Below are positions 67-63,288 of a stretch of 64,000 nucleotides of DNA, one piece after another (the first letter of the stretch is position 1; the number at the start of each line of letters is the position of its first letter). Origin of the DNA: a virus (lineage: Duplodnaviria; Caudoviricetes); the IMG/VR virus record IMGVR_UViG_3300005546_000001, positions 32,001-96,000 of that record. One strand, written 5' to 3'. A model generated the notes under the pieces. The model was not told the DNA's origin and made no database searches. It was given only the letters and a program-made list of their open reading frames with translations. Both the position numbers and the translations under genes were made by a program.

Positions 67-3000
67 ATGAATTCCGCGATAGATGTTTCGGGGGTCGCAA
101 CTGGAAATGACGTTCCGTATTTAGATACAAATGATTTTGTAAAATTTAGTGACGTTGTAAAAGCCGCGCCAATAGCAACTGGTGGATACACAGTTCAGAT
201 CGATCCAACTCTAAATAACGGATTCGCTATAAAAGGCGATTTTAAAGACAACTTTAGTGCATCTGGAATTGCTGTTGACAAAGATTCTGGAGATTTTACT
301 CCGCAAAAGGAACCTATTGTTCCTGATACCAATGTAATTAATTATCAAAGAGTTAAAAGTACTAAACCCGGCCCCGATCATACTGGAATGGAATTTAGAG
401 AAATCGATCTTCTAAATCCCTCATTTAAACTTAAAACCCTTCCATATGGTTTGGATGGAACTGAGCTTATTAACTTTCAAATTGATGATGGAAGTATTAC
501 TGGGGCGGACACATCCGGACTTCCAAATGTAATTCCCCTTCACTATCCAGTTCAAATTGAAGTAGCAGATATCTCGATAAATGGTGGTGCTGGCGAACTA
601 TTCGGTGTTATTGGCAGAAATAATACTCCAGTTGTATCTGTAATAATCGGAAGTAACACCATCGGTGCCAAGGTAGCTGGAATATCACACACGCAATTAA
701 TTCCATTCGTTCCATTTGGGCACGCACCAGATATAGATCATCAGTATTACTATGATTGGTATGCGGTTTGGACAGCTTCTGGTTTAGAAGTCTCGATAGT
801 TGAAAACTATCTTAATAATTTAGCTGGAGAAACCCCTCTTGCTACAGTTACAGCTATTAACCAGAATTCTGGGATTGTAACTATTAGTCTTTTGGGAGCA
901 TCCACAGTAGATGATATTCCAACATCGATTAGATTTTTTGATTCGAGTGATCCAACAAATGTCCGTGGATTTTCAACTATTAAATCTCGATCTGGTTCAG
1001 CTATTGAAATAGATAGCTGGCCAACAGATTTAGCTGTTGGCGATAAACTGGCGTCAAGCGATTCGGCAAGTGTTACAATAACAGAAAAAACGATATATAG
1101 CGGCGCAGCACCCGCTAATCGATATGGGAAACCACAACTCGTAGTTTCAAATGGTGGGGGGGTAACGGCGCGACAGTGGACAGCATCTTACGGTCCTGCC
1201 ATAGATGCTGTACTCTTAGACAATCCATATACAGGAGCACCCGGCAGAAGACTTCGAGTTGATACCGTTGCTTCTCGTTCTACTGACTTAGTTATAGCTA
1301 AATCCGGAAACACAGCAATCTGTACAATCGTTGGCGAACGCCTGCCGCTTCGGGGTGTAGCTAGAATTCTTTTGAACTATGATGTCGCAAAAATCATCGA
1401 TGTTACAGTTCAAGATTCAGCTTCTATATCTAGATGTGGGATACGACAGGGTGATATAATTGAATCTGACGCAGTTTTATCCCCTGATGAAGCTACAGCA
1501 CTGGGACAGTCTGTTCTTGATGAGTTTGCAAATCCAAAACCAAAAGGAACTATAACAAGAGAATCTTGGTTAACAACTAGCTTTCCTTGTCCAAATTATA
1601 CTGCTGATATTGATGTTCCTACGCAGTATGGAATTGATCCGACAACCGTATCTATATCTGATGTAAGCGTAGATTTTGGTGGATATGATTGGGAAGCCGA
1701 CGAAGGTGTCTTAATTTATCAGATATCTCTTGGAAATCTTGATCTTCAAGATGCTATTAATCGTCAGCTATTAGCCAATCAAGTTTCTACTGGACTCCAA
1801 TTCCGACCACTATCCGCGCCAGGATCGCGAATTTCAAGTGCATCTTGGAATGATGTTGATGCAGTTTCAATAGGAGTAAGTGGAACTGTATCTCTAAATG
1901 GAAAGACTGCTTCAAGCACATTTAATCCAGCAGACTATGCAGTTGGGGATCTTCGTGAAGCCCCAGTAGCTCTTGGTGGAGCTGTTACAAGTGGTGAAGT
2001 AGTTGGAGAACTTTTAGTAGAAATTATTTATCCACCACTTGATATTGATGCAGCGTCGGTTCAATGCCACTATCACCCCAAAACTAATTTAGTTATATAT
2101 CGCTGGGGGCGCCCACCGGGATTTATTTCTGGCAAAATAAAACGTAAGGTAGATGATGGAACAAATACCGATACTCTTGTATACAAACAAGTTGATGAAA
2201 TTTTTAATGAGCAGTATTCTCTACCATACGAGCCAGCTAGTAAATCCATAGAAGTCTTAACTGTAGGACTTGGTGATAAAGAAGGTGCTGGTGGGTACAT
2301 AGAACTGACATGCGTTCTTCCTCCATTAGTTGCACCAACAACATTTGATGTTGTCAAGTTTAAGCACAATGATACGATTGTTTTTGAAATCAGCCCACCA
2401 CCAACTGGTTCTGAAATAACAGGAAGAGCAAAATTCTTAAGAGTTTTAATCAGCGAAAATCCAGCATCGGCTCCAACAGTTCGCGCTGACTTTCCAGCCG
2501 ATGATGATGATGTAGCCAAGTACGAAGAAACTCCACCACCAGATGGAACTCCGTGGAGAATGCGCGTTCCATTTGTTGATACTGAAGCTGATGATACGGT
2601 GTACGCAGCAGCATGCTGGGTTGATGGGTTTTTAGAAGAAGGATTATTAACCACCCCATTCGATGCCACGGCGCCACCAATGTCAATCGGATCGATTTCA
2701 ACATCCGATTTCTTCAGATCAGATACTCAGGCCAACGGTGGAACTGTTGAAGACGACAACGAGTTAACTGGGGATACAGAGTTCACCGGAGTTTTTAGAT
2801 ACCACCTCGGGCACCACAATAGTAATATAAAACCGATATTTGAAGAATCTAATCCAATGACTGCTCCTACGGATACACCCACATGGAGCGGTCATTATGT
2901 AAAATCAAATCAGGATGTATCAGACGCTGATGTAACAAACGGTTATATCGATATCGAACTAAACAAAAAATTTCGAATGGGCCGAAAGAAGTGGAGAGCT

Positions 3001-9441: not shown

Positions 9442-10148
9442 TGCCATTTTCTCCTACTGATATTACCGGATGTAAACTATGGTTGAAAGCAGATTCGTTA
9501 GCACTCAATGATAATGATCCAATTAGCACATGGTCAGACTCATCCGGTAGTTCTAACGATGCTACTGCCAGCGGCGCTGTTCGCCCCACATTCAAAACTG
9601 CCCAAGTAAACGGATTGCCAGCAGTGCAATTTGGTGGCAGTCACTACCTTCTAACACCGTCAATTACTACAACCATAGATTCTATTTTTATTGTCTATAA
9701 ACATACATCTGGATCTGGCTATATTATAGAATTTGAGGGAAATGATGCTGCTAACGCACTTATAGCTGGATTTACAGCTAATGTTGAAACCTATAATTCT
9801 CCAAGAATATCAGTTGGAGCATATTCAACATCATTATTTAATCTTCATGAAGTTACTCGTGGTAGTGGAACTACCACATATATAAATGGTACATCCGTAA
9901 CGTCCGATGGAACTAATCAACACGCTGGGGGAGTATTCACGATAGGAGCGTCTAGATTAGGAACGGCTGACTTTGTAACTGGCTATATCGCTGAAATTAT
10001 TTTTTATGATTCTGTTTTATCTACAGGTGATCGCCAAAGCGTAGAAGGTTATATTAATACAAAATATTTTGTAGCTGCTGCTAGTTACGCGCGTCACACA
10101 TATTTACCTCCCGGAATAACTCAGTGGACGGTTGGATTTGAGAGATGA
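9441..10148 (+). CDS. LamG/concanavalin A-like virion lectin protein
   Basis: LWLKAD...WSDSSG, NGLPAVQF, GYIAEIIFYDSVLS. Confidence 0.75.
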   Translation: MPFSPTDITGCKLWLKADSLALNDNDPISTWSDSSGSSNDATASGAVRPTFKTAQVNGLPAVQFGGSHYLLTPSITTTIDSIFIVYKHTSGSGYIIEFEGNDAANALIAGFTANVETYNSPRISVGAYSTSLFNLHEVTRGSGTTTYINGTSVTSDGTNQHAGGVFTIGASRLGTADFVTGYIAEIIFYDSVLSTGDRQSVEGYINTKYFVAAASYARHTYLPPGITQWTVGFER

Positions 10149-12022
10149 AATATATAGGAGCACCATCCGGTATAGTAGGTACTTGGGTTACTCAAGGGCA
10201 CACTATAGCTACCCAGAATATTACTGCATCTGGCGTGGGTGCTGCTGCATTAAATCGCAATCCATTTAAAATAGTTTCCGTCGCCGGTATTGGTGCTGCA
10301 AGCCTAGTTCGATCAACAGCACACAGTATCTCAGCCGCCGGTGTCGGGGCGGCTTCTATTCTGAAATCTCCCGGAAAGTTCATCTTTCCATCCGGAGTTG
10401 GGGCTGCTCTTCTAACTACAAATATAACAAAAATCCAGTCAATTATCGCTGCTGGAGTTGGTACTGGGCTGCTAGTAAATCGGCCAACTAAAATAGTCAG
10501 CACTTCTGGAGTCGGCACACCCGCTCTAACCAGAACTTCCGTCCATATAATCAACGCTGTTGGTATAGGTGCAGCTAGCTTAATTAACTCTGTTTTGAAA
10601 AATATTTCTGCATCCGGAATCGGAACTGCATTTTTAAATATGAGCCTTATAAAAATCCAGGAAGTTGCTCCGGTTGGTGTTGGGGCTGCCACCATAATCA
10701 ACCAGCCTGCTAAAATAGTTTCGGCGGCAGGTGTCGGAGCCTCTGTTATCCAGACAGCTAAAACAAAGATTCAAAGTATAATTGCAGCGGGTATGGGGGC
10801 GGCGAGTTTAATAAAAACTCCGGGAAGAATTTTAAATACATCTGGTGTTGGAACAGCAGCGATTATAAACTCCCCGGTAAAAATCCTATCAGCCGCTGGC
10901 ATAGGTGCCGCATTTATTAACGCAGTTAAAATCGTCGCAGCGCTTATTTCTGCATCTGGAACTGGGGATGCTCAAATAACTAAACAGCCAGTAAAAATAC
11001 TGGCTTCTTCTGGAATCGGAAGCCCAAATATTTCTAGACTTGTAGGTAAAACACTGAGTTCTAGTGGTATCGGCGCCACCGTAATAACCACCCTAAAAGT
11101 AAAAATACAAGAAATTTCTGCGAGTGGCACTGGACTTGCAATTCTCATAAGAACTGCGTTAAAAGTGTTGAGTGGAACCGGAACCGGAACACCGTCAGTT
11201 CTTAGAACTCCGGCTCATTCTATAACCATTGGTGGGGTAGGCGCTGCCGCTGTAGTTAAACAGCCATCAAAAATAATTTCTATAGACGGTGTTGGCGCCG
11301 TTGTCGTAACTTTAACACAAGTAACGAGCAAAATAATTTCAGCCGCTGGAGTTGGAACTGCTGTACTTGTTCGCGGCGTTCTTAAGAATTTAAGTGGTTC
11401 CGGGGTTGGTGCTGGTGCTATAACCAAACAGCCTCGAATTTCTATTTCTACTAGCGGGATTGGAACAGGAACATTATTCCGACTTGTAAGTAAATTCATA
11501 TCCACTGCTGGTGTTGGTCTTGTTATTATAGCAAGGACTCCAAATAAGCAAGTCAGTGCGGTATCAACAGGAACCGGAAGTATTACAAGAGCCCCAGGTC
11601 ACATTATTTCTGGTCAAGGTGTTGGACTTGCTGGAATCCTAAGAAGTTTTCCATTCAGTTTCTCTGCTGCCGGAACTGGGGTAGCGTCATTATTCAAATC
11701 CCCAACTAAAATAGTTTCTGGAACAGCCACTGGAATTGGTAACATTGTTTGGATGCCAATAAAAATTATATCTGCCGTAGCAGTCGGCGCTGGACGGTTT
11801 ATTAGATCCGCTGGGAAAGTAATTGTAGCAACTGGTATCGGTTATGCGATAATTACTTTTATCAGTAGTGGGACTAGATTCCCAATTGTTCAGTTTATAA
11901 GAACTGGAATACTAAATCTAAGCAGATCAAGAACTGTTGATTATGAGCGCTACAAAGGCTCAGAACTATCTGGCGAAGTATCAGTAAAGAGAAGCAAGAT
12001 AACAAAAATTAGTGAGGAATAA
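10145..12022 (+). CDS. Repetitive fibre/spike-like protein
   Basis: About 29 tandem 19-21 aa repeats KIxSAxGxGxAxI. Confidence 0.65.
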   Translation: MKYIGAPSGIVGTWVTQGHTIATQNITASGVGAAALNRNPFKIVSVAGIGAASLVRSTAHSISAAGVGAASILKSPGKFIFPSGVGAALLTTNITKIQSIIAAGVGTGLLVNRPTKIVSTSGVGTPALTRTSVHIINAVGIGAASLINSVLKNISASGIGTAFLNMSLIKIQEVAPVGVGAATIINQPAKIVSAAGVGASVIQTAKTKIQSIIAAGMGAASLIKTPGRILNTSGVGTAAIINSPVKILSAAGIGAAFINAVKIVAALISASGTGDAQITKQPVKILASSGIGSPNISRLVGKTLSSSGIGATVITTLKVKIQEISASGTGLAILIRTALKVLSGTGTGTPSVLRTPAHSITIGGVGAAAVVKQPSKIISIDGVGAVVVTLTQVTSKIISAAGVGTAVLVRGVLKNLSGSGVGAGAITKQPRISISTSGIGTGTLFRLVSKFISTAGVGLVIIARTPNKQVSAVSTGTGSITRAPGHIISGQGVGLAGILRSFPFSFSAAGTGVASLFKSPTKIVSGTATGIGNIVWMPIKIISAVAVGAGRFIRSAGKVIVATGIGYAIITFISSGTRFPIVQFIRTGILNLSRSRTVDYERYKGSELSGEVSVKRSKITKISEE

Positions 12023-12967: not shown

Positions 12968-13065
12968 TTCTTTAAAGGTCTCTTAAATCGCTTCCTAACG
13001 CGTTCTTGGGGGATTCTACGGCACAGTCTGAAATCAAAATTCATTTTCTGAAAAACTAAATTAGT
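12968..13065. repeat. Composite ~98 bp element, copy A
   Basis: TTCTTTAAAGGTCTCT, ATTCTACGG at +45, ACTAAATTAGT a further +42; same spacing as the copy at 57121. Confidence 0.6.
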
Positions 13066-13650
13066 ATGGCACACCGACCGATAACAGATAATTTTACTCT
13101 ATTCTTTGATTACGGAGTTTGGATTCCTGATAAATACCTCGATATTACTGGGGATATTAATGAGAAACTAGTTTTTAAAGCCATGCGTGGGCTAACAATC
13201 CTAGATTCTTTAGCAAGCAATGCACCAATAACAATCCGCCTATCTACTTCAGGTGGAGATGTTTACGACGGTTTATCCCTGTATGATGCTATAAGAAATT
13301 GTAAATCCAGAGTAGAAATCATAGGATTTGGAAAAGTATGGTCAATGGGTTCTGTAATTATGCAAGCCGCCGACCCCGGTGGAAGATTTCTAACGCCAAA
13401 CACAACGTTCATGGTGCATCAAGGATATTCGGGAATTACCGAGGATCATCCGGAAACAGTTCAAAGATGGGCCAAAGAAGACAAAAGAATTGGTAATAAA
13501 ATAAATCGTATTTTATACGAACGAAGCAAGTTAACTGCCGATATCTCGATTACGCAGAAACAATTTATAGCCGGAATCCAGTTCGATGTTTATATGGACC
13601 CAAGTACAGCGATCTCGGCGGGACTCGCAGATGCCATTCTTGCGCCATAG
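13066..13650 (+). CDS. ClpP-like serine protease
   Basis: STSGGDVYDG, WSMG (catalytic Ser), MVHQ (His), GLADAI. Confidence 0.85.
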   Translation: MAHRPITDNFTLFFDYGVWIPDKYLDITGDINEKLVFKAMRGLTILDSLASNAPITIRLSTSGGDVYDGLSLYDAIRNCKSRVEIIGFGKVWSMGSVIMQAADPGGRFLTPNTTFMVHQGYSGITEDHPETVQRWAKEDKRIGNKINRILYERSKLTADISITQKQFIAGIQFDVYMDPSTAISAGLADAILAP

Positions 13651-14457: not shown

Positions 14458-14486
14458 TTGACAAAAATCAAGGAATCTACTAAAAT
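14458..14486 (+). promoter_or_regulatory. Promoter of the tRNA/ncRNA operon
   Basis: TTGACA, 17 bp, TAAAAT, 9 bp upstream of the first tRNA. Confidence 0.85.
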
Positions 14487-14495
14487 AGCAGAGTT

Positions 14496-14582
14496 GCCAA
14501 CTTCGGGTAGCGGCGATCCCACGAGATTGTAAACCTCGCATTCTTCGGAGTCTCGGTGGTTCGAGTCCACCAGTTGGCACCA
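14496..14582 (+). tRNA. trnY: tRNA-Tyr(GTA), CCA encoded
   Basis: GCCAACT/AGTTGGC acceptor, loop TTGTAAA, long variable arm. Confidence 0.9.
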
Positions 14583-14586
14583 TTTT

Positions 14587-14658
14587 GGCAGAGTTCGTTA
14601 ATTGGTAAGCGGCTGATCTCCAAAATCAGTGCTGAAAGTTCGACCCTTTCCTCTGTCG
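14587..14658 (+). tRNA. trnW: tRNA-Trp(CCA)
   Basis: CTGAT-CTCCAAA-ATCAG, G73. Confidence 0.9.
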
Positions 14659-14729
14659 TAGTAGACCGCTGCAACGCGCCAACCAGAGCGTAGCGACTCG
14701 GCTAGTTACTGAGTCGAATCTGGTAAACT

Positions 14730-14817
14730 GGAAGCGAACCGGCTGGATCAGGGGAGAGTTTGCTAAACTCTTGGGGCGCTAGACGTGCCCTTGTGCGTTC
14801 GAGTCGCACCGTTTCCG
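14730..14817 (+). tRNA. trnS: tRNA-Ser(GCT)
   Basis: Loop TTGCTAA, long variable arm, G73. Confidence 0.9.
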
Positions 14818-14820
14818 CTT

Positions 14821-14903
14821 GGAGAATTTGGCATAGGCACGCCGCACGGTCCTGAAAACCGCAGGGGCTTACACCCCGGTAAGTTCGACTCTTACATTCT
14901 CCG
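14821..14903 (+). tRNA. trnS: tRNA-Ser(TGA), C33
   Basis: Loop CCTGAAA, long variable arm, G73. Confidence 0.85.
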
Positions 14904-14909
14904 CTTTTT

Positions 14910-14982
14910 GGCCCCGTGGTGAAACTGGATATCACAAAACGCTTCGAACGTTTAGTTGAGGAATCGTACTCTTCCGGGGTTA
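14910..14982 (+). tRNA. trnR: tRNA-Arg(TCG)
   Basis: AAACG-CTTCGAA-CGTTT; atypical T loop ATCGTAC. Confidence 0.8.
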
Positions 14983-14993
14983 TTGGAGTAATT

Positions 14994-15164
14994 ATGGAAG
15001 ATACAGATAAAGTGCCCGAATTCAAATTCGGAGTATTCAACTCTATGTTTAGATACGGGCTAGTAAAAAAGTTCTATGAAAAAGAAGCCGCTATTAAATA
15101 TGCGGATTACCTCAGTCACGGCGGACAATATTTCGTTGAACGAGTTGACTGGATAATGCCTTAG
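14994..15164 (+). CDS. Small hypothetical protein within the tRNA array
   Basis: GGAG RBS, ATG at 14994; the longer ORF-track start overlaps a tRNA. Confidence 0.6.
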   Translation: MEDTDKVPEFKFGVFNSMFRYGLVKKFYEKEAAIKYADYLSHGGQYFVERVDWIMP

Positions 15165-15170
15165 TTTTAT

Positions 15171-15255
15171 GCGAGCGTAGACAAATTGGCAAAGTCGGCA
15201 GGCTTAGACCCTGTTTTGCGAAAGCATCCTGGAGGTTCAACTCCTCTCGCTCGTA
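15171..15255 (+). tRNA. trnL: tRNA-Leu(TAG)
   Basis: Loop CTTAGAC, long variable arm, A73. Confidence 0.9.
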
Positions 15256-15259
15256 CCTT

Positions 15260-15332
15260 GCTGGTGTGGTGTAATTGGTAAACGCAGCGGCCTCAAACGT
15301 CGCTTATGGCTGTTCGAATCAGCTCACCAGCA
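15260..15332 (+). tRNA. trnL: tRNA with CAA anticodon (Leu), no variable arm
   Basis: GCGGC-CTCAAAC-GTCGC, variable loop TTAT only. Confidence 0.8.
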
Positions 15333-15406
15333 TTTTCAGTGGATGTGGGGCCTCCTGCATCGGCGCCCTTGCACACCGAGGCGCTTTTAATTTCGGGTGC
15401 TATTTA

Positions 15407-15478
15407 TCGCGCATAGCCAAGGGGAAAGGCGTGAGTCTGCAAAACTCTGATACATCGGTTCGATTCCGATTGCGCGAT
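15407..15478 (+). tRNA. trnC: tRNA-Cys(GCA)
   Basis: Loop CTGCAAA, U73. Confidence 0.9.
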
Positions 15479-15483
15479 CTTAA

Positions 15484-15560
15484 TGCGGGCGATAGCGCCA
15501 TTGTGCTAACTGCGCTCATAACGCAGATAAGGCGGGGTGAGACTCCCCGGCCCGCTACCA
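15484..15560 (+). tRNA. trnM: tRNA-Met(CAT), initiator-like, CCA encoded
   Basis: T1:T72 mismatch, loop CTCATAA, T loop TGAGACT. Confidence 0.8.
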
Positions 15561-15670
15561 TTTGAAACGCCAAGCGGCCACATGAAATTGGTATACCTCA
15601 ATTAAGGAGAACGGGTAAGAATGACCGACGCGCCGCCAGCGCGAGTACTGGCGACCTTGGCGCGGTTTTT

Positions 15671-15744
15671 GCCAGCGTGATGTAATTGGCACGCATTTAC
15701 CGCTTAAAACGGTGATTTTGGGGGTTCGAGTCCCTCCGCTGGCA
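15671..15744 (+). tRNA. trnL: tRNA with TAA anticodon (Leu), no variable arm
   Basis: TACCG-CTTAAAA-CGGTG, variable loop ATTTT. Confidence 0.8.
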
Positions 15745-15828
15745 TTCTTTGGTGCGAAGCTATGCTATGAATATTGCCATAGAGCGCAAACCTCCATTGG
15801 ATGTTAGGCGCTCGCACTGAGGGGACAT

Positions 15829-15900
15829 GGCGTCGAATGCAAATGGCTAGCAGCAAGTCCTTCAAACTTGTACTAGAGAGTTCAATTCTCTCCGGCGCTG
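15829..15900 (+). tRNA. trnE: tRNA-Glu(TTC), C33
   Basis: CAAGT-CCTTCAA-ACTTG, G73. Confidence 0.75.
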
Positions 15901-15977
15901 CTATTCCGCCTGACTATTTCGATGGCAGGCTGCGGGAGTACACTACAGAAGGAATTCTGAAAGAACTCCCTGCTTAT

Positions 15978-16050
15978 GGCGACTGTAGTGTAGTGGAAAC
16001 ATGGAAAGCTGTGAACTTTTCGTCAGTCCGTTCAAATCGGCTCAGTCGCC
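15978..16050 (+). tRNA. trnH: tRNA-His(GTG)
   Basis: G-1:C73, loop CTGTGAA. Confidence 0.9.
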
Positions 16051-16056
16051 CTTTAT

Positions 16057-16130
16057 TCTGGCGTCTTCTAAAGCAAGAACCATCGCTCTGAACGATGAGA
16101 ATCTCGGTTCGATTCCGTGCGCCAGTGCCA
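16057..16130 (+). tRNA. trnQ: tRNA-Gln(CTG), CCA encoded
   Basis: CATCG-CTCTGAA-CGATG. Confidence 0.85.
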
Positions 16131-16144
16131 ACTAATTTAGTTTT

Positions 16145-16217
16145 GCCGATCTAGTGTAATTGGCTGCACGCCCTCCTGATTAGAGGGAAGCTCAGGGTTC
16201 AAGTCCTTGGATCGGTA
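16145..16217 (+). tRNA. trnI: tRNA-Ile(GAT)
   Basis: CCCTC-CTGATTA-GAGGG (T37). Confidence 0.85.
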
Positions 16218-16221
16218 CTTA

Positions 16222-16326
16222 GGGAGTTTATCTCCCGACGAAGAGCCGGGGTCGCTGGTTCAACTCCAGTAAAGGGGACCATTTTATCCCCTGCTAGTTT
16301 AGCGTAAAACACCGGCTATGATTTTT
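16222..16326 (+). ncRNA. YrlA-type Y RNA / circularly permuted tRNA mimic
   Basis: Order is GACGAAG, AGCCGG, T arm, AAAGGGGA-CCA, loop, TCCCCTGC, D arm, CCGGCT. Confidence 0.75.
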
Positions 16327-16397
16327 GGAGGCGTAGTGTAAAGGCCGCACGATTGGCTGTCTACCATTTAGAGCGAGTTCGAATCTCGTCGTCTCCG
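16327..16397 (+). tRNA. trnD: tRNA-Asp(GTC)
   Basis: Loop CTGTCTA, G73. Confidence 0.9.
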
Positions 16398-16400
16398 CCT

Positions 16401-16474
16401 GTTCTCGTAGCCAAATTGGATAAGGTGCCAGTCTTCTAAACTGGAGATTCCGAGTTCGAGTCTCGGCGGGAACA
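16401..16474 (+). tRNA. trnR: tRNA-Arg(TCT)
   Basis: CCAGT-CTTCTAA-ACTGG. Confidence 0.9.
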
Positions 16475-16476
16475 TT

Positions 16477-16800
16477 ATGAAAGTTCTTTTCACTACTATT
16501 TTAGTAGCCGTATCTTTTCTTTGTACCGGCTTTATTGGTGGATTTTCTAGTTATACAGCGACAGCGTACACCCTAAAAGGCCGTACGGCTTTTGGTTGCA
16601 AAGCACACTCTGGAATAATAGCTGCTGATCCGCGCCAGATTAAACTCGGTTCTACAGTTTATATCAGAGCCGGTAAATACTCCGGAGAATATGTCGTGCA
16701 TGACACTGGCGTAAAAGGCCGTAGAATCGACATGTGGCTCCCCAGCCGAGCAGAAGCCTTGCGCTTTGGCAAGAAATCTGTTACACTGAAAATATTATGA
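16477..16800 (+). CDS. 3D-domain (MltA-like) cell-wall hydrolase with signal peptide
   Basis: TATAYT, IAADP..I.LGS, HDTG, RIDMW. Confidence 0.85.
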   Translation: MKVLFTTILVAVSFLCTGFIGGFSSYTATAYTLKGRTAFGCKAHSGIIAADPRQIKLGSTVYIRAGKYSGEYVVHDTGVKGRRIDMWLPSRAEALRFGKKSVTLKIL

Positions 16801-17000
16801 AAACAATTTGGATATTAACAGCGCATTCTGAAAGTGGTGATGATTTTGGCCCATTAGCATTTTCTAAGAAACCAACAGAAGCAAAACTAAAGAAAATTGC
16901 TTTTGATTGGGATGGTGAAGAAACAGAAGATGGTCCTGGTGACTATGGTTCTTATGTTTATTTGGATCTAAGTGAGGTAGAAGTTGATAAAAAAAGTTAA
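16797..17000 (+). CDS. Hypothetical protein
   Basis: ATGA overlap, start MKTIW. Confidence 0.55.
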   Translation: MKTIWILTAHSESGDDFGPLAFSKKPTEAKLKKIAFDWDGEETEDGPGDYGSYVYLDLSEVEVDKKS

Positions 17001-17172: not shown

Positions 17173-17177
17173 TTTCT

Positions 17178-17266: not shown

Positions 17267-17269
17267 CTC

Positions 17270-17342: not shown

Positions 17343-17346
17343 CTTT

Positions 17347-45891: not shown

Positions 45892-47016
45892 CTAAATCCT
45901 CGCGGGACTGACGACGAATCGGCAGTCAAATAAATCGTCCACATGTTCAAAAATCACCCTGCTCATTTCTTCAGCCCCATACCAAATTCTAACTTTTTTA
46001 CTTTTGCCCACGCCAGCCGCGAAATAGTCACTCTTAAAGCCCTGAGTCAGTTCGTTACTCCCTGCCCCACCTTCAGAATCTATCTTCGTAACTACCGAAC
46101 CGTCTTCAGTGCCCGCGATTTTTATCCCGTCTCTTAAAAAGGACACCGCAATGTAGCCGTGAGAATCATCTGACTTCGTACCAGCGCTAGTTAGTTTCAA
46201 AGCACTCAACAATTCTCCAGAATCTACCTCTATAAACGACATTCCATTATTTTTAAACAGCGCTGAAACATTTGGCGGGCCTTCTATCGCCGCCGGACAT
46301 GAATATCTGATTCCTTGCGTCGTTCCGATACTTAGTTTGTTTTCGGAAATCCCGAGATAAATTGTTTCTTCCACATTTGAGAGAACTTTTTCAAATGAAT
46401 CAAGAAAAATTACCGGAATCAGCGCGTCTGCTTTGTTTATAATCGCTTCGTTTTTATGAGAAGCTCCGGCTATTTTATGATTTGACGCGGCTACGGCCCA
46501 CACCTGCCCCGGCCTGAAAATCAATCGGATACTTTGAAACATCCCCGCTCCACCATCTACCAGCGCCTTGCGAACTCGCTGCAAAAGTGCCCGGAGAGCT
46601 GCGACTTCCAACGGAATTTCAAGTGGCGGCGCTGACCACGCTGGCGGCAAAGTTTCGATGTGGCGCACGGGCCACCGCGCTACTAAATTAGTTCCTGAAA
46701 TCCTGACGCCCGCACCCCCAGAGTCAGTCAGATAACTTGATATTGTAAGAATTTCTGATGAAGAATTTTGACACGTTGTAATAAATTTGGAAAGTGGTAG
46801 AAAAGTATCGCCATGCTCAAGAACTTCCGCTTCCAAATCTATTTCGAGTACTTCATGTCCGTTAAATATTCTGAAGGAAGCTGTATCATCCTGAGCGTGG
46901 AGAACGATGAATTCTGAAGCGGCCTTGTCCTGCGCGTTTTTACTAGTCGTTCGCGCAACTGAAGAAATTAATGACAGAACTTCCTGAAGAATGTCACGTT
47001 GGATTTTTATTTGCAT
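45892..47016 (-). CDS. dnaN: DNA polymerase III beta sliding clamp-like protein
   Basis: 374 aa; MQIKIQRD.L...L, EAEV...G...LP, C-terminal VVSPARI. Confidence 0.75.
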   Translation of the reverse strand: MQIKIQRDILQEVLSLISSVARTTSKNAQDKAASEFIVLHAQDDTASFRIFNGHEVLEIDLEAEVLEHGDTFLPLSKFITTCQNSSSEILTISSYLTDSGGAGVRISGTNLVARWPVRHIETLPPAWSAPPLEIPLEVAALRALLQRVRKALVDGGAGMFQSIRLIFRPGQVWAVAASNHKIAGASHKNEAIINKADALIPVIFLDSFEKVLSNVEETIYLGISENKLSIGTTQGIRYSCPAAIEGPPNVSALFKNNGMSFIEVDSGELLSALKLTSAGTKSDDSHGYIAVSFLRDGIKIAGTEDGSVVTKIDSEGGAGSNELTQGFKSDYFAAGVGKSKKVRIWYGAEEMSRVIFEHVDDLFDCRFVVSPARI

Positions 47017-47622
47017 TTATGACCACTGCTCCGCCATTGCATTTGCAATTCCTTGAAAGGTTTTGCTGCGCACCTTTTCTCTCTCTGCTGGCGGTAGAGA
47101 TGCTGCTTCGACATACCAACGTGCCATGCGTTTTCCACTTTTAAACATTGTATATTCTGGCTCAACTAATTTAGTTGGTACTAGTGGTGTAAGATTTTTC
47201 AACCATAAGCAAGTTTTCTTGGCTTCTGTGTGCCCAAATTGAAATGGCTGAATAATTTGATTTGGTTTTCTCCATCTTGTACTCATTATTCCAACAGGAT
47301 TTTCTATACAAATTTTATCTATATTTGCATTTACAAGACTCATAAAGAATTTAACCGCATCTTCTCTATCTTGCACCCTTGTTGGAAATCTATCTTTATA
47401 TTCAGGCTTAAACCATTTATTTCCTGTAGTTGTAAGATATGTACAAGGTGGGTGTGCAACCATCAAATCCCACTTTTGTTTTAGCATTTCTGAAATATAA
47501 CCCTCAAAATGCTGGCCGGGAATTTCCGTTGGCAGTAAATCACAACTCCAAGCATCATGCCCTCTTGCTTTAAAAGCTTCTCTAACTATTCCGCTGAATT
47601 CACACGCAATTAGTACACGCAT
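47017..47622 (-). CDS. DNA cytosine methyltransferase-like protein
   Basis: VLIACEFSG, AHPPCTYL, IENP, RSKTF.GIA. Confidence 0.8.
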   Translation of the reverse strand: MRVLIACEFSGIVREAFKARGHDAWSCDLLPTEIPGQHFEGYISEMLKQKWDLMVAHPPCTYLTTTGNKWFKPEYKDRFPTRVQDREDAVKFFMSLVNANIDKICIENPVGIMSTRWRKPNQIIQPFQFGHTEAKKTCLWLKNLTPLVPTKLVEPEYTMFKSGKRMARWYVEAASLPPAEREKVRSKTFQGIANAMAEQWS

Positions 47623-47727: not shown

Positions 47728-48732
47728 TCATTTCATTATTTCCTTCCACGGACTCACTACTATTTTAGTAGCCCCCGCCAGTAAAAAATCGTCAAGTCCT
47801 TTTCCAATCTCGGCATCCCACGTAGCCACGGAGACTGTACAGCCCGAGCGCGCCTGGATAGCATCGTACTGTCTTTGCATTGCATTTCTAACAAATTTAT
47901 TTGTCTGCCAGTCCATATCATAAGCAAAAACTAGAGAATCAAAATTCAAACTAGCGTTGGCAATTTCCTGCATCGCTGCATCTGTCCCGGCTTTTCCTAG
48001 AATCGGCAGGCCAGTTAACATCCCCACCAAATCAGATTTTAACATCCCCTCAACTATATATGCAACTCTCCCCTTACCCGGAACCCAGTGTACCGGACAT
48101 CCACTGCTTGCACCGGAATCCATGAGTTCTTTTTTCCCGTCCGGAAGAATTTTAAGATACGAACTAAACCACTTGTATTTAGTAGTTTCCGAATACGTGC
48201 GCATTTGGAGCGCTCGAATTCTTCCTTGTATATCTCTGACGGGGATGAGAAATCCCGGTCGAATATTTGCCTTCCAATTCGATTGCTCCCTAAAAAATCC
48301 AGGAACGCGGTCGAGTATAAAACCTTCTCCAGAAAGTCTTTCGGCAACGTCGTCAGTTGTTCTGTAGTTAAGCTGGGCAATTTGTTTCTCCGAAAGTCCA
48401 CGAGAAAAAAGTGATTCCTTTTCTCTGTCTTCTAGTGTGAGCATTTCTAACATCCGGTTATATACGGCGTGGCGCCTGTGAATGCTCGCAGGAAGCGGTC
48501 GCTGTGGGGTGGCGTTTGCTGGCGTTTCCAGACCGTTTGCGAGGCTTTTATGAATGAACCGACCATCAGATGCCACCCGGTTACTCTGGCTTCTTAAACA
48601 AATAGAGATTCGTCGCCCGTTCCTTATAATGTAAGTGCAGCCTCTATTTGAGTTACAAGCCCAGCATCTGTCTGCGTAGTTAACCCTTTGGAAGCCACGG
48701 CTAAAATAGTTGCTCATGGATAAACTTACCAA
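47728..48732 (-). CDS. Primase-like TOPRIM protein (DUF3854-like) with N-terminal Zn finger
   Basis: CWAC..C..C, VEGMLK, AYDMD, KGLDD. Confidence 0.75.
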   Translation of the reverse strand: MVSLSMSNYFSRGFQRVNYADRCWACNSNRGCTYIIRNGRRISICLRSQSNRVASDGRFIHKSLANGLETPANATPQRPLPASIHRRHAVYNRMLEMLTLEDREKESLFSRGLSEKQIAQLNYRTTDDVAERLSGEGFILDRVPGFFREQSNWKANIRPGFLIPVRDIQGRIRALQMRTYSETTKYKWFSSYLKILPDGKKELMDSGASSGCPVHWVPGKGRVAYIVEGMLKSDLVGMLTGLPILGKAGTDAAMQEIANASLNFDSLVFAYDMDWQTNKFVRNAMQRQYDAIQARSGCTVSVATWDAEIGKGLDDFLLAGATKIVVSPWKEIMK

Positions 48733-50338
48733 GTTGTATCAACCCTGTCTACCTCCCTCAAAAGATATCTAATTGCTTTCGCCGCTTCTAGCGCCAATTC
48801 ATTTCCCGGTGACATGTCTAAACTTGTTCCCCCAGCTTCATCAAGCCTGTTTAATAGTTTTTTTATTTCTGTATACATTTTAACCTCCGTTTTTCACGTA
48901 TTCCTCGTATTCAGCATCTCCCTGTCTTACATCATCCCACATTTCATTTTCGGATTTTTTATAAAACTCGCAAGTTGCTGCGATAATGGATTTTACCCAC
49001 TCTGCTACATGCTCTGGTCCATCAAGTCCTGACAGCCCGCCAAGCAAAACCTCGTATGGCTGCCGTTCTAGAACTAAACATTCTTCACAGAATGCACAAC
49101 TAATTGCACCAAGCGATGAACAGCAAACCCCTAATGCTGGTTCTCCACAAACTTCACATTTTAAATCGTTCATTCTTCCTCCTCTAGATACGGAAGTACA
49201 TGTTGTGGGAGAACATGACACTCACAACCACACCGGGCTGTCTTTCCGTCACCATCGACTGTTTCATAAGCGCATTCAGCGCAGCGCCAGTCTCCATGCA
49301 TACACGGCTCGAACATTCGCCAGCGAAGTACCGGAGTTAGATTTTCTATTCTTTCGTCTAAGACTGTCATTTCTTCCCCCTTTTTGTCTTCGGTTTTTCT
49401 GGTGGTTCGGCGCGATATAGCGCCAGAATCCCAGCAATCTGCTCCAGCGCTTTACTACCCACCGCATCACTCTCAATTCTAAACCCTGACTTATCTTTCC
49501 ACAAGAACAAAAATATTTCAAGACTTTTATCTGGTTTGAGTAGTTTGCCTACTCCCACAGCTAGTGAGTTTAGAAGTTCTTCATCGCTTGAAAAACCCAA
49601 AGAAATCTTTTTCCCCTGAAACGCAACAAAGGGTTTTTCTTTTTCAAATATTATTTCGGAGTCTTCAAGAGCAAACAAAATCAATGATACCCCGGAAAAT
49701 ATACTCAGGGATTCATACGGTTTTTGAATTAGGATGTTGCCCACTTGCTATGTCCTTTAAAACTGACATTAACTCTTGGTGGCGGCGTTCCTCATCTCGG
49801 CATGTATTACAAATTTCGCCCATCATTGAGTCTATCATCTCTCTACATTTCCAACAGCGGAATCCAATTATTTCCCCGCGCCAGTTTTTAATTGAGTTGT
49901 TCATTTCTACTCCGATTTCGCAAGCTGTTTGATTACAAAGTAAGCTATTATGCTGGATATCAGAGCAAACGGTCCTGTTATACTAAACATTGTGGTGATT
50001 ACTCGATCTTGGGTGCCCCATTCTGTAGGCACTTTGTAAGTAACCGCCTTCTTTATCATCCAATACGCCAACACCCAGCATAGTAACCAGCTTAGAACTA
50101 AAATAGTTATCAGCATTATTTGTACTCCGGTGGATACAAGATTTTTCCTCTGTATTTACTTGGAGATTCTGGCGCGTCAATGAACAGGCACCACTTTCCG
50201 GCAATACACGAATTTTTACTGTGCGGTTGTTCTGTCCACTGGTCACAATGAATGCAGCCAAAAGTATCACATGCTTCAAAAAGAGATGGCAGTTGCCCGC
50301 ATCGATTACAGTTTGCTCTGTTCATTACTCTGCTCATT

Positions 50339-51826: not shown

Positions 51827-53264
51827 TAATCACCTATCCTATTTCAATATCTTCAAGTTCTAGTTCATGTTCAAATTTATCTTTTGCTTCTAGGAACTCC
51901 ATAGCTGCAATACGCAGCGTTTCACAATTTTTTATGCCAGATGCGTAAATTGCAAACTCCTCAAAATCGTATGGAGCCCCACTGAAATTTTCTCTAAATT
52001 CTTCCACGGTATTGATTTTCATTTTATCTCTCCATCGCCATCAACTGGTATTCCCTGAGATTTTCCTGCGACGTGTAATTTCGTCTCGGCTTGAACTCCG
52101 CCTTATATATTTCGTATCTGTGCCAGTAATCTATCAGAAAACTCAGCGCCAATTCCGGTCGCACATCAATTACCCAATCATCACAATGCTTGCTGGTAAA
52201 AAACCAGTGCAGTCCGTCCAGTGTTTCTTCCGTACTCCCAGCGCGAGTTATAAGCTCCCTAACTCCTGTAGCAGTCTCTGGCGCAACGCTCGACCATCTC
52301 CTGTACTCACAGTACTTTTGGAGTACCGTCCGCAATCCTTCTGAAAACTCTACTAATTTAGTCATCTATCTCCAAAATCTTCTAGTATTTCAAAATCATC
52401 GTCACAGTTGTCATTCTCACACCACTCATGAACAAATTTATTATCTTGTAGTTTAATGATATCTCCGGGAATTATCCAAACCGAGCAATTTATACAGCGA
52501 CTTCTAAAGTGAGCGACCCTAGCATTTTTTGATATTGGTGGGCGCACTATTTTAGTCATCTTTCTGTTTACTCTTCCAATTAAGAACTATCAAAACATTT
52601 TGGTACATTGCATCATAAAACTTTTCTCCGTGGAGCAATGCATGAAGCTGCTTCCCAGAACAATATTCAACGAGTTCTTGGATAGACCAGTTCTCAAATG
52701 GTTCTACTTTAGGTTTTTTAGTCCTTGCCATTCAATGTCTCCTGTATTTGCAGTCTAGTTTTACCGTATCCTATTTTAGCAACTGTTTTGATTACAATTA
52801 AACACCATTTAGGAAAAATTCTGTACTGGTTGCCTCCATATGCTAAATCTGAACCAAAGCACCAATCTGTATCCCCACCAAAATAATCGACTTCCGGATT
52901 TAGTTCTTTAACAGCTTCGTCGAGCGGATCGCCAACAACTCGCTTCTTCGGCGCTGTTGCAAGCCACGATTTGAATTGCTTTTCAGAAATTGGAAATGGT
53001 GTCATAAAGAACTCACTTGTTTATAAACTGTAACAAGTTCTTGAACTGGTACAACTTCCGGGCATTCTATTTCTTCTCGCCATCCCCAAGGGTCACAATC
53101 TTGATTTTCTGTTGCCGGTGCGTCGTAGTTTGTGTGGTACAGTTTTCCGTCATGCTCAAAAACAAGTGAGTGTGTGACACTCCAGCGCCTATGGCCGATT
53201 ATTTTGTCTTCGACCATTCCACCACTTTTGTACATCTTGTCTTCGAGTTGCTCTGGTGTGAACT

Positions 53265-54345: not shown

Positions 54346-55326
54346 TTAATCGGAAATCTGTAAATCGCCATCTTCTTCTCCTTCTTCGTAAATGACTTCA
54401 AATCCTTCTCGCTTCAACTGAAAACAGAAGGGGCGTGCAGCACAGTACGCGAGACATCTGTAAGCAACCCCCGGCCTGCTTGACAATTCAAACTCTGGCC
54501 CCATTTCTTCCAAGTACGCACGAGCTTCTGCTTCTGTTTTGAAATTCGAGCGATTCCCCTTGGCGCGGACTGCTCCCGTCTTCCGTACCCGCCACGTATC
54601 TCGGCGCCAGCGCTCTTCTGGAGTACACTCGAAAAGTTCTTCATCTGAAAGATTTTCTGCTGCTTTGTGAAGTGCGACTCTTTCTTTTAGATACTTTTCT
54701 ACTTCTTCATCTGGCCACAAAGGAATCTCAATGATAGCACAGCCCCAGTCCGGATAATCTTTCGTTCGTTTACAAACTATTTTAGTTCCGTCTTCAGTGC
54801 TGACTTTGTACTTTCCGTTTATCCCAGCAAACGACCAGTCTCTAAAAATCGCGCAGATTCTCGCGCTGGAGACTTCATAGCCGTGTTGCCTGAGCAAGTG
54901 CGCGTAACAATTAAGTTGCTGATGCCATTCAAGTTTTTCAAACTTTATTGCTGAAGTCTTCGTGTGCTTCCAGTCTGTCAAAATATGATTTTTGCTGTCG
55001 TATGTAGTATGAAGATCGATCTGTCCGCTGATTTTTACACCTTCAATCGTAGTGAACAGTCGTTCTTCGATCATCTCAGATTCATCGGGATTTAAATTTC
55101 CGACTCTTTCTAAGAGATCGTGAACAGCAGAACCGAGCACACTGTAAATATTTTCACGAGGATCTTTTGTAATTTCTGAATCATGACGCCGAGTTAGCTG
55201 CGTGACCTGAACTGGCTTGATGAGATCAGTTATGCTAAAAGCAGATTCGCCGCGCGAATACGCTGAGAATTTAAGAATCTTTGCTAGCGGTCTGGGAAAT
55301 TCTGAAGGTAGCTCCGTGTAGTTCAT
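54346..55326 (-). CDS. PD-(D/E)XK (Cas4/RecB-like) exonuclease
   Basis: GSAVH, SGQID, TDWK, QLNCY, C-terminal C...C..FC. Confidence 0.8.
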   Translation of the reverse strand: MNYTELPSEFPRPLAKILKFSAYSRGESAFSITDLIKPVQVTQLTRRHDSEITKDPRENIYSVLGSAVHDLLERVGNLNPDESEMIEERLFTTIEGVKISGQIDLHTTYDSKNHILTDWKHTKTSAIKFEKLEWHQQLNCYAHLLRQHGYEVSSARICAIFRDWSFAGINGKYKVSTEDGTKIVCKRTKDYPDWGCAIIEIPLWPDEEVEKYLKERVALHKAAENLSDEELFECTPEERWRRDTWRVRKTGAVRAKGNRSNFKTEAEARAYLEEMGPEFELSSRPGVAYRCLAYCAARPFCFQLKREGFEVIYEEGEEDGDLQISD

Positions 55327-57120: not shown

Positions 57121-57218
57121 TTCTTTAAAAGTCTCTCTAACGGGCTGAGAACGTCGTTACGGGGCATTCTACGGGCAAGTTTGCCGGTGAAAATCAGTCC
57201 CCTGAGAACTATTTTAGT
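57121..57218. repeat. Composite ~98 bp element, copy B
   Basis: TTCTTTAAAAGTCTCT, ATTCTACGG at +45, ACTATTTTAGT a further +42. Confidence 0.6.
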
Positions 57219-57564
57219 TGTCTGGTAGAATCTCCATCCGTTCGGCTGTCACGACATCCCTAAAAAGGTTTCCGTAATAAAATCCTTTCCATTTGACATC
57301 GTAAAGACGAACTCTCTTCACAACCACAGGGCTGCACTCATTCCTTGCAAATCTTTTGGCTTTGTGTTTTCTAAAAAAGGCGTGAAACCCTTTATCTGGA
57401 TTTTCATCTAGTTCGCCAAGAGTGCCATCAGAATTATAAATCTTTCCTACTTCATAAGATAAATTTTTATAAATCGGAGAAAATAATCTATCATTTTTTA
57501 CCAAGAATACCTTCCACGCTAGCATTTCTGGCATAATAAACTCTTTTGCATTTGAAATACACAT
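57214..57564 (-). CDS. Hypothetical protein
   Basis: AWKVF...GFHAF phage motif. Confidence 0.55.
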   Translation of the reverse strand: MCISNAKEFIMPEMLAWKVFLVKNDRLFSPIYKNLSYEVGKIYNSDGTLGELDENPDKGFHAFFRKHKAKRFARNECSPVVVKRVRLYDVKWKGFYYGNLFRDVVTAERMEILPDN

Positions 57565-60473: not shown

Positions 60474-61694
60474 TATTTGTCGCAAAAACAAGGACGAAGA
60501 TAATTGCATTTCTTGCAATATGTATTTTCACCCTGATATTCATGATGGGGATAGTAAATAATGCGATCAGATGGTTTTTTATTCAGTTCAATGGATTTTT
60601 CTTTCTTTCTAATCATTTCACCTCCAACTATTTTAGTCAATCAAATCCAAGTATTTCTTCGTCTTCTCCAACCAATCCTTCAACCGTTTCCGATTCAGTT
60701 AATAGATAAACTGCATCACCTGAAATAAAACTATCGTTATCGAAGTCATCTATAACCCAACACCACACATCATTTATTTTGATTGGAGAAATAAACGCAC
60801 CAGTTGTAAATGCCGTGGTCGCATTAGTTATTTTCATTCTTCCTCCCCGTCAAACCATTTGCAATTTTCAGCAGCCGAAATCGGCAACCCCGAAGTTTCA
60901 AAAACTTTCATGCTCGTAAATGTTTTCCCACCCCACTTATCAAGTCCGCAACTTATTTTCATCACGCGGCTGTTGTCGAACAGCGTGGTAGTACTCTCCG
61001 CGAGTTGTCGGCCCGTCACGTTTTCCGGCTTCATTAATTTCAAAGTACACCAGCTACAATCGGCACAGTTCTTTTGCATTTATAATCCTTGCTCACACTC
61101 ATCATAAGAATGTAAATCAAACTCATCAGCACAATACTGTTTAACTGCCAACGCATGGAGACAAAGATTTTTGTTTTTATCAATTTCCTGTTTGAGTTTG
61201 ATATTTTCTGATTCTAGTTTAAAAACTCTTCGGCGCAACGACTTTAATTCTTTCTCTTTCTCTGCACCCAAGACTGAATCCGGAACATCAATTTTTATTT
61301 TACTCATTTTTCTCCTAAAATCTGCTCCATTGCAGCGCCGGAGTCTCCAGCATTCTCCGAGATTATTTGTACAGCCCGTCTGCGTTCTGAAAATGTCCTT
61401 GCGCGGACGAGTGCGGCGCATGTTTCTTTTTGTTCAACTAGAATTCTGGCGTATTTTGTATGAAGATCGGTTATTTCTTTTTTATGTTCGTCAATTGTGA
61501 TGACTTCGCCACCTACAAATTCTACACCATCTTTAATAGCATAGTGAAGTTTACCAAATGCATACCAATCTGGCTGAAGATAAAATTTCATCTTTCTTTC
61601 CTTACACCAATTAAAATAGGAATCCCAAAAGCTGTTACAATAAACAGCCCAATAGCTGCGCCAGCTAAGAATGCGTTGAGTTTCATGTTTGCTC

Positions 61695-62037: not shown

Positions 62038-62676
62038 TTATTCTCCTTTAATTATTTCTTGAATTTCCGGACTCTCAATCAACGCGACTAGCGCCATTTC
62101 GAGTGTTAAAATCTCGTGGCGTTTCTCGCGTGGCTCCTGTGCTAACTTGGCAACTAAATTAGTTGTGGTCGAAAACAAGTCGTACAAACTCTCATTCACT
62201 ATCAATTTGATTTCTCGAACATCTTCGATGCCAAGGCGCTCTTTCTCTCTGTGTACAGTTTCTTTAAAAGCCTGAGTTTCTTGGCGCGAGCGGGCAGTCT
62301 TCGCTTGTTCTAAAATCTCAGGATCGATTCGGCCTTCACTTGCTTGAGCGAGCATTGCTAAATCCCCAACCCTACTCAGTGGAACTTCTTTTGCAATCTC
62401 CGGGTCAACCCCCGCCAGTAAAAGTTTCCTCATAGGGAGCAACCAGTTTCCTACCGTAGTTACGGGGAGATTTAAAGTTGTATGTATGTAGTCACTCCAG
62501 TTGTTGTACCCAAGATCGCGCCAGAGTTCATCTTTCCATATCGGATGCAAAACCGAAGCGAACGACCACCACTTTTCGTGCAGCACGTCCCGAAGCCGCT
62601 GAGCTTCTTTATCCAACGCTTTCGCTCTCGCCAGCCTCTCCGCGCTAGACTCTGCTACTGTAGCTATTTCAGTCAT
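62038..62676 (-). CDS. Helical putative DNA-binding protein
   Basis: LW..LGY..W.DY....L.L HTH-like segment. Confidence 0.45.
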   Translation of the reverse strand: MTEIATVAESSAERLARAKALDKEAQRLRDVLHEKWWSFASVLHPIWKDELWRDLGYNNWSDYIHTTLNLPVTTVGNWLLPMRKLLLAGVDPEIAKEVPLSRVGDLAMLAQASEGRIDPEILEQAKTARSRQETQAFKETVHREKERLGIEDVREIKLIVNESLYDLFSTTTNLVAKLAQEPREKRHEILTLEMALVALIESPEIQEIIKGE

Positions 62677-62874: not shown

Positions 62875-63288
62875 TCATTTCGTTTCTCCTTGTGCATACA
62901 GTTCAATCTTTCCTACTCTCATGCCCAGCGCGCGGTTACAGACTGAGCAAAATGTTAGCACCCCGGTCGAACCTTCCAGCGCTCCCAATCCCAAAATTCT
63001 GTATGTCCCAGATTCTTTGTGTGTGTCGCTGAACTCCACCAATCTGAAAACCCTGTCGATTTCCAGATGTTCAGTTCGTACCACAGCATCACGGTCTTCT
63101 TCCAAATCTACGAAGTAAATCTGAGCGTTCTTTACTTCAAGAATCCGCGCTGCGAAGTGTCTCAAGTCTTTTGTGCGGTGAGCATGTTCTTTGATTTGTG
63201 CTCCGGCTTCTACGTGCCAAATCATTCCACCCATCCCAAGCACAAAAACCACCAGAACTAAAATAGTCGTCCTTAGATTAGTTTTCAT
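62875..63288 (-). CDS. Membrane-anchored hypothetical protein
   Basis: N-terminal TM. Confidence 0.5.
   Translation of the reverse strand: MKTNLRTTILVLVVFVLGMGGMIWHVEAGAQIKEHAHRTKDLRHFAARILEVKNAQIYFVDLEEDRDAVVRTEHLEIDRVFRLVEFSDTHKESGTYRILGLGALEGSTGVLTFCSVCNRALGMRVGKIELYAQGETK

Follow-up and report, generated by a model that had tools for sequence, protein, structure and literature searches.

We analyzed a 64,000-nucleotide stretch of DNA (hereafter the window), corresponding to positions 32001-96000 of the 131-kb soil phage record IMGVR_UViG_3300005546_000001 (Caudoviricetes), and focused on a short palindrome scattered along it, ACTA-WWW-TAGT (W being A or T), together with its candidate binder, a protein of 212 amino acids (aa) encoded at 62038-62676 on the minus strand. 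The record carries terminal repeats and, once the terminal overlap was removed, represents a genome of 130,856 bp that CheckV rated as 100% complete; the same genome is also present as a JGI metagenome contig. The gene repertory includes PolA, DnaB, a primase-like protein, a clamp-like protein, an annealase, and 27 tRNAs. In the complete genome, no match to integrase (PF00589), resolvase (PF00239), ParA (PF13614), ParB_N (PF02195), or XRE (PF01381) was found, though a divergent lysogeny module may still be present.

All of the 29 exact copies of the palindrome listed for the window in the first-pass annotation are correctly placed, and its claim that they lie far above chance holds, as 100 dinucleotide shuffles yielded 0.08 copies on average and a single copy at most. 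Over the whole genome, there are 50 exact copies against 0.3-0.75 expected under Markov models of order 2-5, with a mean spacing of 2.6 kb and a closest gap of 194 bp. When any 3-nt spacer was allowed, 54 sites were found on the same scale, 50 of which have a spacer comprising A and T only. The enrichment is specific to this motif and not matched by variants: the half-sites at other spacer lengths occur in 0-7 copies, and the second-ranked palindrome of the same layout (4-W3-4) occurs in 4 copies. Among the 50 exact copies, 46 have an A-tract without a TpA step at the center, and the flanking positions are also biased, C being preferred at position -2 (60%) and avoided at position -1 (1/100). 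As only 22 one-mismatch copies were detected, the site is nearly all-or-none. The centers read on the sense strand (AAA, 16; AAT, 10; ATT, 10; TTT, 10) show no bias relative to transcription. The sites are spaced more regularly than random (coefficient of variation of the gaps, 0.74 vs 0.97; p = 0.017) and are denser in the block of replication and metabolism genes (one per 2.0 kb) than in the virion block (one per 4.1 kb). We rejected the box of the regulator NrdR as the identity of the motif; NrdR boxes have a 4-nt spacer, and only 7 copies with such a spacer are present in the genome.

The copies inside genes were also retained beyond what the encoded proteins demand. We observed 21 in-gene copies, while a synonymous-codon shuffle that preserves the proteins gave a mean of 1.5 (maximum of 6) and a codon-order shuffle gave 0.3. 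The in-frame tetrapeptides of the form T-[KNI]-[IL]-V, of which approximately 3 would be expected in the proteome from composition, are written with the exact motif codons in 20 out of 20 cases. The first-pass annotation had stated that the sites impose TKIV, TKLV, TILV, or TNLV on the proteins, and the protein starts that it quoted (MTKIV, MTKLV, and MKTKIV) are all correct. Thus, the selection works on the DNA sequence, and the motif dictates the protein sequence. It could be argued that an AT-rich motif containing stop codons is merely suited to gene junctions and arises from composition or codon usage, or that the copies are those of a mobile micro-repeat. These readings are refuted by the shuffle and Markov controls, all of which the enrichment outlives. 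In addition, the flanks are unrelated among the copies, the spacer is variable, and the motif is enriched in a relative with 55% GC (5 copies seen, 0.04 expected). We assign virtually no probability to either of the two.

Only 18 of the 50 exact copies lie deep in a gene, against 64% expected (p = 7e-5), and many copies in the window adjoin gene boundaries. Those at 13055-13065 and 35131-35141 adjoin the start codons of a ClpP-like gene (13066-13650) and of open reading frame (ORF) 34867-35130, respectively. The copies at 39919-39929 and 57208-57218 overlap the stop codons of ORFs 39925-40314 and 57214-57564, the copy at 44948-44958 covers a gene junction with the stop codon of ORF 44949-45116, and that at 60627-60637 lies upstream of the DNA polymerase gene, where it coincides with the stop codon of ORF 60637-60837. 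Other copies occupy gene termini, namely codons 3-6 of ORF 41427-41966 (41950-41960), codons 2-5 of a conserved 113-aa ORF upstream of DnaB (52352-52362), codons 2-5 of ORF 52362-52559 (52546-52556), codons 8-11 of ORF 62875-63288 (63257-63267), the 5' end of ORF 49907-50116 (50097-50107), and in-frame positions close to the 3' end of ORF 24722-25396 (24756-24766) and the 5' end of ORF 25835-26332 (26283-26293). In-frame copies were further found in a large ORF of the tail region (2083-2093), ORF 10145-12022 (10487-10497 and 11705-11715), ORF 28762-29532 (29384-29394), ORF 31040-31699 (31605-31615), the GDP-mannose dehydratase gene (38983-38993), the sliding-clamp-like gene at 45892-47016 (46682-46692), ORF 47017-47622 (47165-47175), and the PD-(D/E)XK nuclease gene (54776-54786).

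The 27 tRNA genes detected by ARAGORN form a cluster at 14496-19838, which contains four sites and has a near-site at its promoter. The four sites are found between tRNA-Gln and tRNA-Ile (16131-16141), 20 nt past tRNA-Arg (16495-16505), within tRNA-Gln at 18838-18909 (18875-18885), as the first-pass annotation had stated for one of the tRNAs, and over the stop codon of a short ORF (19141-19151). The promoter of the cluster is of sigma70 type (14458-14489, plus strand) with a perfect -35/17/-10 arrangement, and the one-mismatch site at 14479-14489 covers its -10 box (14481-14486). In a second sigma70-type promoter (41396-41424, minus strand), a one-mismatch site (41403-41413) lies in the spacer beside the -10 box; an exact copy (41264-41274) follows approximately 130 nt downstream, where it lies in frame close to the 5' end of a short ORF. 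Of the 10 strong sigma70 promoters, 3 have an exact or one-mismatch site lying across them (p of approximately 0.003, with a caveat on AT composition). The site itself holds a TA-W3-T hexamer on both strands and might be taken for a bidirectional -10 element, an idea that we rejected as a general explanation because a -35 box at a distance of 17 bp accompanies only 1 of the 50 exact copies.

There was no nucleotide relative of this phage among cultured phages, and the scans of IMG/VR with the capsid and candidate-binder alignments gave no match, while a metagenome scan gave a single irrelevant locus. The homologues of the DNA polymerase, which share 42-75% identity, led us to five phage loci with 37-55% GC. 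The relatives were compared with the phage under study (labeled G000 in these comparisons) over 15-22 kb each. All of the five polymerase-linked loci carry the same core in 3-9 copies per 15-22 kb, and the core is enriched in six related phages in total; L013 bears 2 exact and 5 near copies. The positions of the sites are mostly not kept between homologous genes of the relatives. Two exceptions were found. One is the site at 47759-47769, located toward the 3' end of the primase-like (DUF3854) gene and found at the same position in L009. The other is the site on codons 172-175 of the candidate binder gene (62153-62163), which is exact at the homologous codons in four phages (this phage, L007, L008, and L009), whose proteins are 45-67% identical; its spacer has changed both synonymously and non-synonymously, and the amino acids differ. 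As the site positions turn over while the core persists, we conclude that the selected trait is the density of the sites. Such rapid turnover around a stable core is a clear example of selection on the DNA prevailing over the sequence of the proteins.

A homologue of ORF 62038-62676 was identified in all of the 10 phage loci compared, albeit four of them were selected through it, and the gene is kept in every motif-bearing phage examined. This ORF, which the first-pass annotation had put forward as one possible binder, is the best-supported candidate. The searches of Pfam, PHROGs, and PDB sequences gave no name for the protein, and Foldseek found no significant match in PDB. The AlphaFold2 (AF2) model (pLDDT of 93.6) predicts a long helix and a helix-turn-helix (HTH) at approximately residues 14-150, followed by a C-terminal ribbon-helix-helix (RHH)-like domain (approximately residues 154-212); the model begins at the helical DNA-binding part and has no ParB CTPase domain. 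Folding the N-terminal part from a single sequence yielded a poor model that gave no information. The best structural match of the HTH is StbA's DNA-binding domain (7pc1), a weak one with a Z of 5.1, an rmsd of 3.8, 67 aligned residues, and 22% identity. Residues 31-147 weakly matched KorB (Z of 4.9), further HTH proteins were also weak matches of the N-terminal domain, and the C-terminal domain weakly matched TraM, MazE6, and NikR (Z of 4.7-5.6) as well as MatP (Z of 4.5). The neighbors of the protein in the Atlas, the DUF3102 and DUF1016/ParB-HTH clusters, are weak matches as well (0.88-0.89). Altogether, the protein is predicted to combine a ParB/KorB/StbA-like HTH with an RHH and to lack the CTPase domain, a modeled layout that suits a palindromic site. 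Apart from the candidate, one HTH alone was found in the genome, an IclR-like winged HTH (125059-125481 in genome coordinates), which is an orphan and was thus rejected as a family-wide binder.

The base flanking the core differs among the phages. It is A in G000 (61/100), L007 (18/18), and L009 (5/6), whereas L008 has C (10/10) and L010 and L011 mostly have T. The base tracks the start of the candidate's predicted recognition helix, which shows a T/Q difference, with G000, L007, and L009 sharing one start and L008, L010, and L011 the other. The DnaB tree joins L008 to G000 and L007 (100/99), so that the flank-base pattern cuts across the tree; DnaB alone was informative, as the candidate, polymerase, and nuclease trees were unresolved for L008 and L009. 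The covariation, seen in few phages, is suggestive of the 212-aa protein being the binder. We regard the 212-aa protein as probably the one that binds the palindrome.

The binder family led us to a second group of phages. A profile search recovered 128 family members, two of which led to cultured phages, and homologues were found in Rhizobium phage L338C, Stenotrophomonas phage DLP5, Rhodobacter phage RcZahn, and the Vibrio phages SIO-2 and VspDsh_2 (profile E values of 1e-16 to 1e-23). These five phages were picked solely by homology to the binder family and then scanned for palindromes, and the scan can thus be regarded as a blind test. Each of the five carries its own dispersed 14-bp palindrome of the TGCAA-N4-TTGCA type (log p of -7 to -50), with 23 copies in 40 kb in L338C (0.06 expected), 13 in DLP5, 12 in RcZahn, and fewer in the Vibrio phages. 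The best palindromes in three control phages reached log p of -3.1 to -3.5, and those in 51 bacterial loci reached -6.1 at best. In L338C, DLP5, and RcZahn, a site lies 78-98 nt before the start of the homologue and 8-9 nt 5' of its -35 box, which is the usual position for autoregulation. In L338C, 11 of the 23 sites are located 7-12 nt upstream of a -35 box. We additionally noticed that eleven promoters of this phage (L106 in our comparisons) have the palindrome 7-12 nt before them and, past the -35 box, a spacer sequence that is conserved among them. Our literature search found no report of the palindromes of L338C, DLP5, or RcZahn.

The third group is represented by Corndog, a Cluster O mycobacteriophage with 34 copies of a 17-bp palindrome of a 7-3-7 layout with an A/T spacer, no lysogeny, and an unexplained function of the repeats (PMC4351075). 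We scanned the Corndog genome and three control phages (991 ORFs), and the sole significant match of the family profile was gp122, with 19.8 bits for a narrow profile and 25.7 bits (E of 4e-7, profile positions 5-173) for a broad profile; shuffled sequences reached 9.9 bits at most. In the collection searched, gp122 matched 34 mycobacteriophage records at >90% identity and none elsewhere. A Cluster O repeat is located 162 nt upstream of gp122, near its promoter. The candidates named by Cresawn et al. were gp53, gp76, and gp90, not gp122 (PMC4351075), and no report of gp122 as the repeat binder was found in the literature search. The array studied here and the Cluster O repeats are alike in that two half-sites are separated by a 3-nt A/T spacer, the copies occur approximately once per 2 kb, are nearly invariant, and lie at junctions as well as within genes, the density is higher in the non-virion arm, the motif is essentially absent from the host, no integrase is found, and Corndog has a putative remote homologue of the candidate binder. 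They differ in the half-sites, which are 7 bp and GC-rich in Cluster O and 4-6 bp and AT-rich here, and the phage families are unrelated. The two arrays match in architecture and possibly in protein family, but not in sequence.

The co-occurrence described above bears on the possibility that another phage protein or enzyme, such as a conserved small ORF product, a recombination or replication-loading factor, or a packaging factor, binds the palindrome and that the 212-aa gene is no more than its companion. Such a protein could be sought among the other unannotated genes conserved in the family (e.g., the 113-aa ORF before DnaB and an 81-aa Cys-rich ORF), the relatives were seen over only 15-22 kb each, and the sharp definition of the site, with 50 exact and 22 one-mismatch copies, recalls recognition by an enzyme. 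We nevertheless consider this quite improbable, as it leaves unexplained the site that three cultured phages have beside the promoter of the homologue itself, the match to gp122 in an unrelated mycobacteriophage, and the covariation between the flank and the recognition helix.

We find it improbable, by a shade more, that the palindrome serves a DNA-binding protein of the host that is recruited or titrated. The host of the phage is hinted at by a similarity of the polymerase to Blastocatellia at only 27-32%, and the matches of the GDP-mannose dehydratase, mostly unnamed, did not indicate a host. In favor of a host factor, the core is identical among phages that cover 35-60% GC and have diverged homologues. 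The core may resemble the center of type-1 boxes of IscR/Rrf2 and, in its layout, the 5-3-5 sites of the Lrp family. On the other hand, the motif is not enriched in 121 Blastocatellia genomes, in which it mostly occurs in 0-5 copies, as a rule fewer than the reversed-pattern control (with the caveat that the host is unproven); a few genomes have 45-85 copies, which we estimate to be explained by their lower GC. Six sampled copies shared no gene context, and no conservation of the motif upstream of specific host operons was found in the Blastocatellia searched, albeit the true host may differ. Furthermore, the flanks switch between close phages, and the second clade holds one motif across alpha- and gammaproteobacterial hosts. 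Thus, of the functions that the first-pass annotation had raised, docking sites for a dimeric protein that acts genome-wide gained support, while the titration of a host protein is disfavored.

Our preferred reading, to which we assign a probability of roughly 0.45, is that the phage's own 212-aa protein acts as a genome-wide repressor and roadblock; once the protein is accepted as the binder, repression is fairly likely to be its main role. Two subunits would pair via the C-terminal RHH, and each HTH would read one half-site in successive major grooves, with the A-tract spacer being read indirectly. The protein would accumulate during infection and occupy the approximately 50 sites. A site over a promoter of the host polymerase would repress initiation, and the other sites would form orientation-independent, two-way roadblocks that dampen early and middle transcription, including that of the protein's own gene. 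The selection would act on density and even coverage, not on position, and because of this the sites would arise where they are cheapest, namely at gene junctions, termini, and tolerant peptides.

Several observations weigh against this reading. Among the 50 exact sites, 47 lie away from recognizable promoters, and none of the promoters found in the relatives L007-L013 has an exact site. A promoter role was likewise argued against for the Cluster O repeats by Cresawn et al. (PMC4351075). L013 and L015 have the same core with homologues of only 24-35% identity, a persistence that would equally fit a conserved host factor, and L015 (60% GC) has one exact copy in 20 kb despite its homologue. L114, L115, and L016 also hold homologues but no strong palindrome, L016 having two near copies. 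The five cultured phages are all of one clade and thus amount to approximately one independent observation. The link to gp122 is remote (HHalign probability of 39%), and Corndog was chosen because its repeats were already known. Finally, the fold scores of the candidate (Z of approximately 5) lie within background, so that its fold class is one that we infer by reasoning.

The same protein may alternatively serve as a structural self-tag that organizes the phage DNA (by positioning or spreading its copies, in the manner of StbA with R388, or by compaction, nuclease shielding, or hand-over to packaging), with the promoter overlaps being secondary autoregulation. In line with this, the spacing is more even than random, the virion genes and tRNAs are covered as well, the density persists while the positions turn over, in the candidate hosts the motif occurs at chance level or below it, the HTH has its best match in StbA's DNA-binding domain (10.1101/2022.04.29.490116), and DLP5 was recovered as a phagemid (PMC7326821). 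We regard a primarily structural role as rather unlikely, since the genome has no match to ParA, ParB_N, or integrase, half of the L338C sites hold a fixed position beside a -35 box, and the detection of Corndog gp122 was confined to infected cells, with none in the particles (PMC4351075).

The repressor reading can be compared with known systems. The first-pass annotation had pointed to the stoperators of mycobacteriophage L5, a likeness that stands as an analogy but not as membership. As in the Cluster A phages, in which dozens of sites for a repressor (L5 gp71) are spread genome-wide, many at junctions and few at promoters, and are proposed to block elongation, the sites studied here are numerous and scattered. 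Stoperators, however, have an asymmetric sequence that follows the direction of transcription (PMC4351075), and their role is in lysogenic immunity, whereas the sites studied here are symmetric and unoriented, in a genome without an integrase or XRE repressor match. A second parallel is KorB of plasmid RK2, in which a ParB-type HTH is combined with C-terminal dimerization and to which residues 31-147 of the candidate show a weak structural match. KorB requires an N-terminal CTPase clamp for its action at a distance, and its sites number about a dozen. The candidate has no CTPase domain, no match to the ParA/IncC ATPase (PF13614) is found in the phage genome, and the phage has approximately 50 sites, as if density replaced sliding. 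The KorB operators (OB) are likewise palindromic and found both near -35 boxes and far from promoters (PMC11790492). StbA of plasmid R388 is also a small two-domain protein with an N-terminal HTH that represses several operons, and it segregates DNA without an NTPase (10.1101/2022.04.29.490116). Its stbS sites form a clustered array of direct repeats on a plasmid, whereas the phage sites are dispersed palindromes. A further parallel is offered by the chromosomal systems MatP-matS, Noc-NBS, and SlmA-SBS, in which dispersed, often coding palindromes are selected for density and organize DNA. MatP shares an RHH with the candidate (Z of 4.5), but all three are systems of host chromosomes confined to a chromosomal zone, and no sequence homology to them was shown.

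Arrays of closely set palindromes in phages that appear to be lytic were described with Cluster O (2015), with neither a binder nor a function. What is new here is an additional motif family and one protein family as the candidate binder across three unrelated phage groups. We tentatively propose, as a possibility that falls short of even odds, a widespread phage system in which a CTPase-less, ParB-like HTH-RHH protein and tens of evenly spread palindromes tag, silence, and organize the chromosome in lytic growth, with the same family and lineage-specific sites serving the soil phages, the L338C/DLP5/SIO-2 clade, and Cluster O (gp122). If this is true, phages regulate or tag a whole chromosome by rewriting coding sequence to hold sites, using density in place of the sliding of KorB. 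As three members belong to cultured phages (Corndog gp122, L338C gp74, and DLP5 gp67), the old question is now amenable to a direct binding experiment.

Some other features of the genome and its relatives deserve mention. The 113-aa ORF (window 52024-52365) is located directly upstream of DnaB in 8 of the 10 related phages, and its position and motif suggest a helicase loader or the C-terminal domain of an initiator. In L014, a relative with 66% GC, a different 17-nt motif occurs three times (5665, 9945, and 20585), each copy adjoining a promoter; one of these is the promoter of its candidate-binder homologue, with a divergent XRE gene beside it. Apart from the palindrome, one k-mer family alone is strongly repeated in the genome, a repeat of an 11-nt class seen approximately 12 times and carried by a 296-aa ORF (L004:14869-15759). 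Two pairs of overlapping, opposed sigma70 promoters were found at genome positions 5110/5119 and 98875/98896, the latter equivalent to window positions 66875-66896 and thus beyond the window. The large terminase, encoded before the window, is apparently split into abutting ORFs (L001:7898-8848 and L001:8848-9942) that match consecutive parts of phrog_38 (profile positions 252-466 and 486-628). Just upstream of the capsid genes, a 599-aa ORF (L001:12015-13814) has a C-terminal match to AAA ATPase. A cluster of four genes (L003:17860-19661 and L004:1692-3932; genome 111860-115932) lies in a region in which one ORF has a ThiF match, and one palindrome site is located inside the 645-aa gene.

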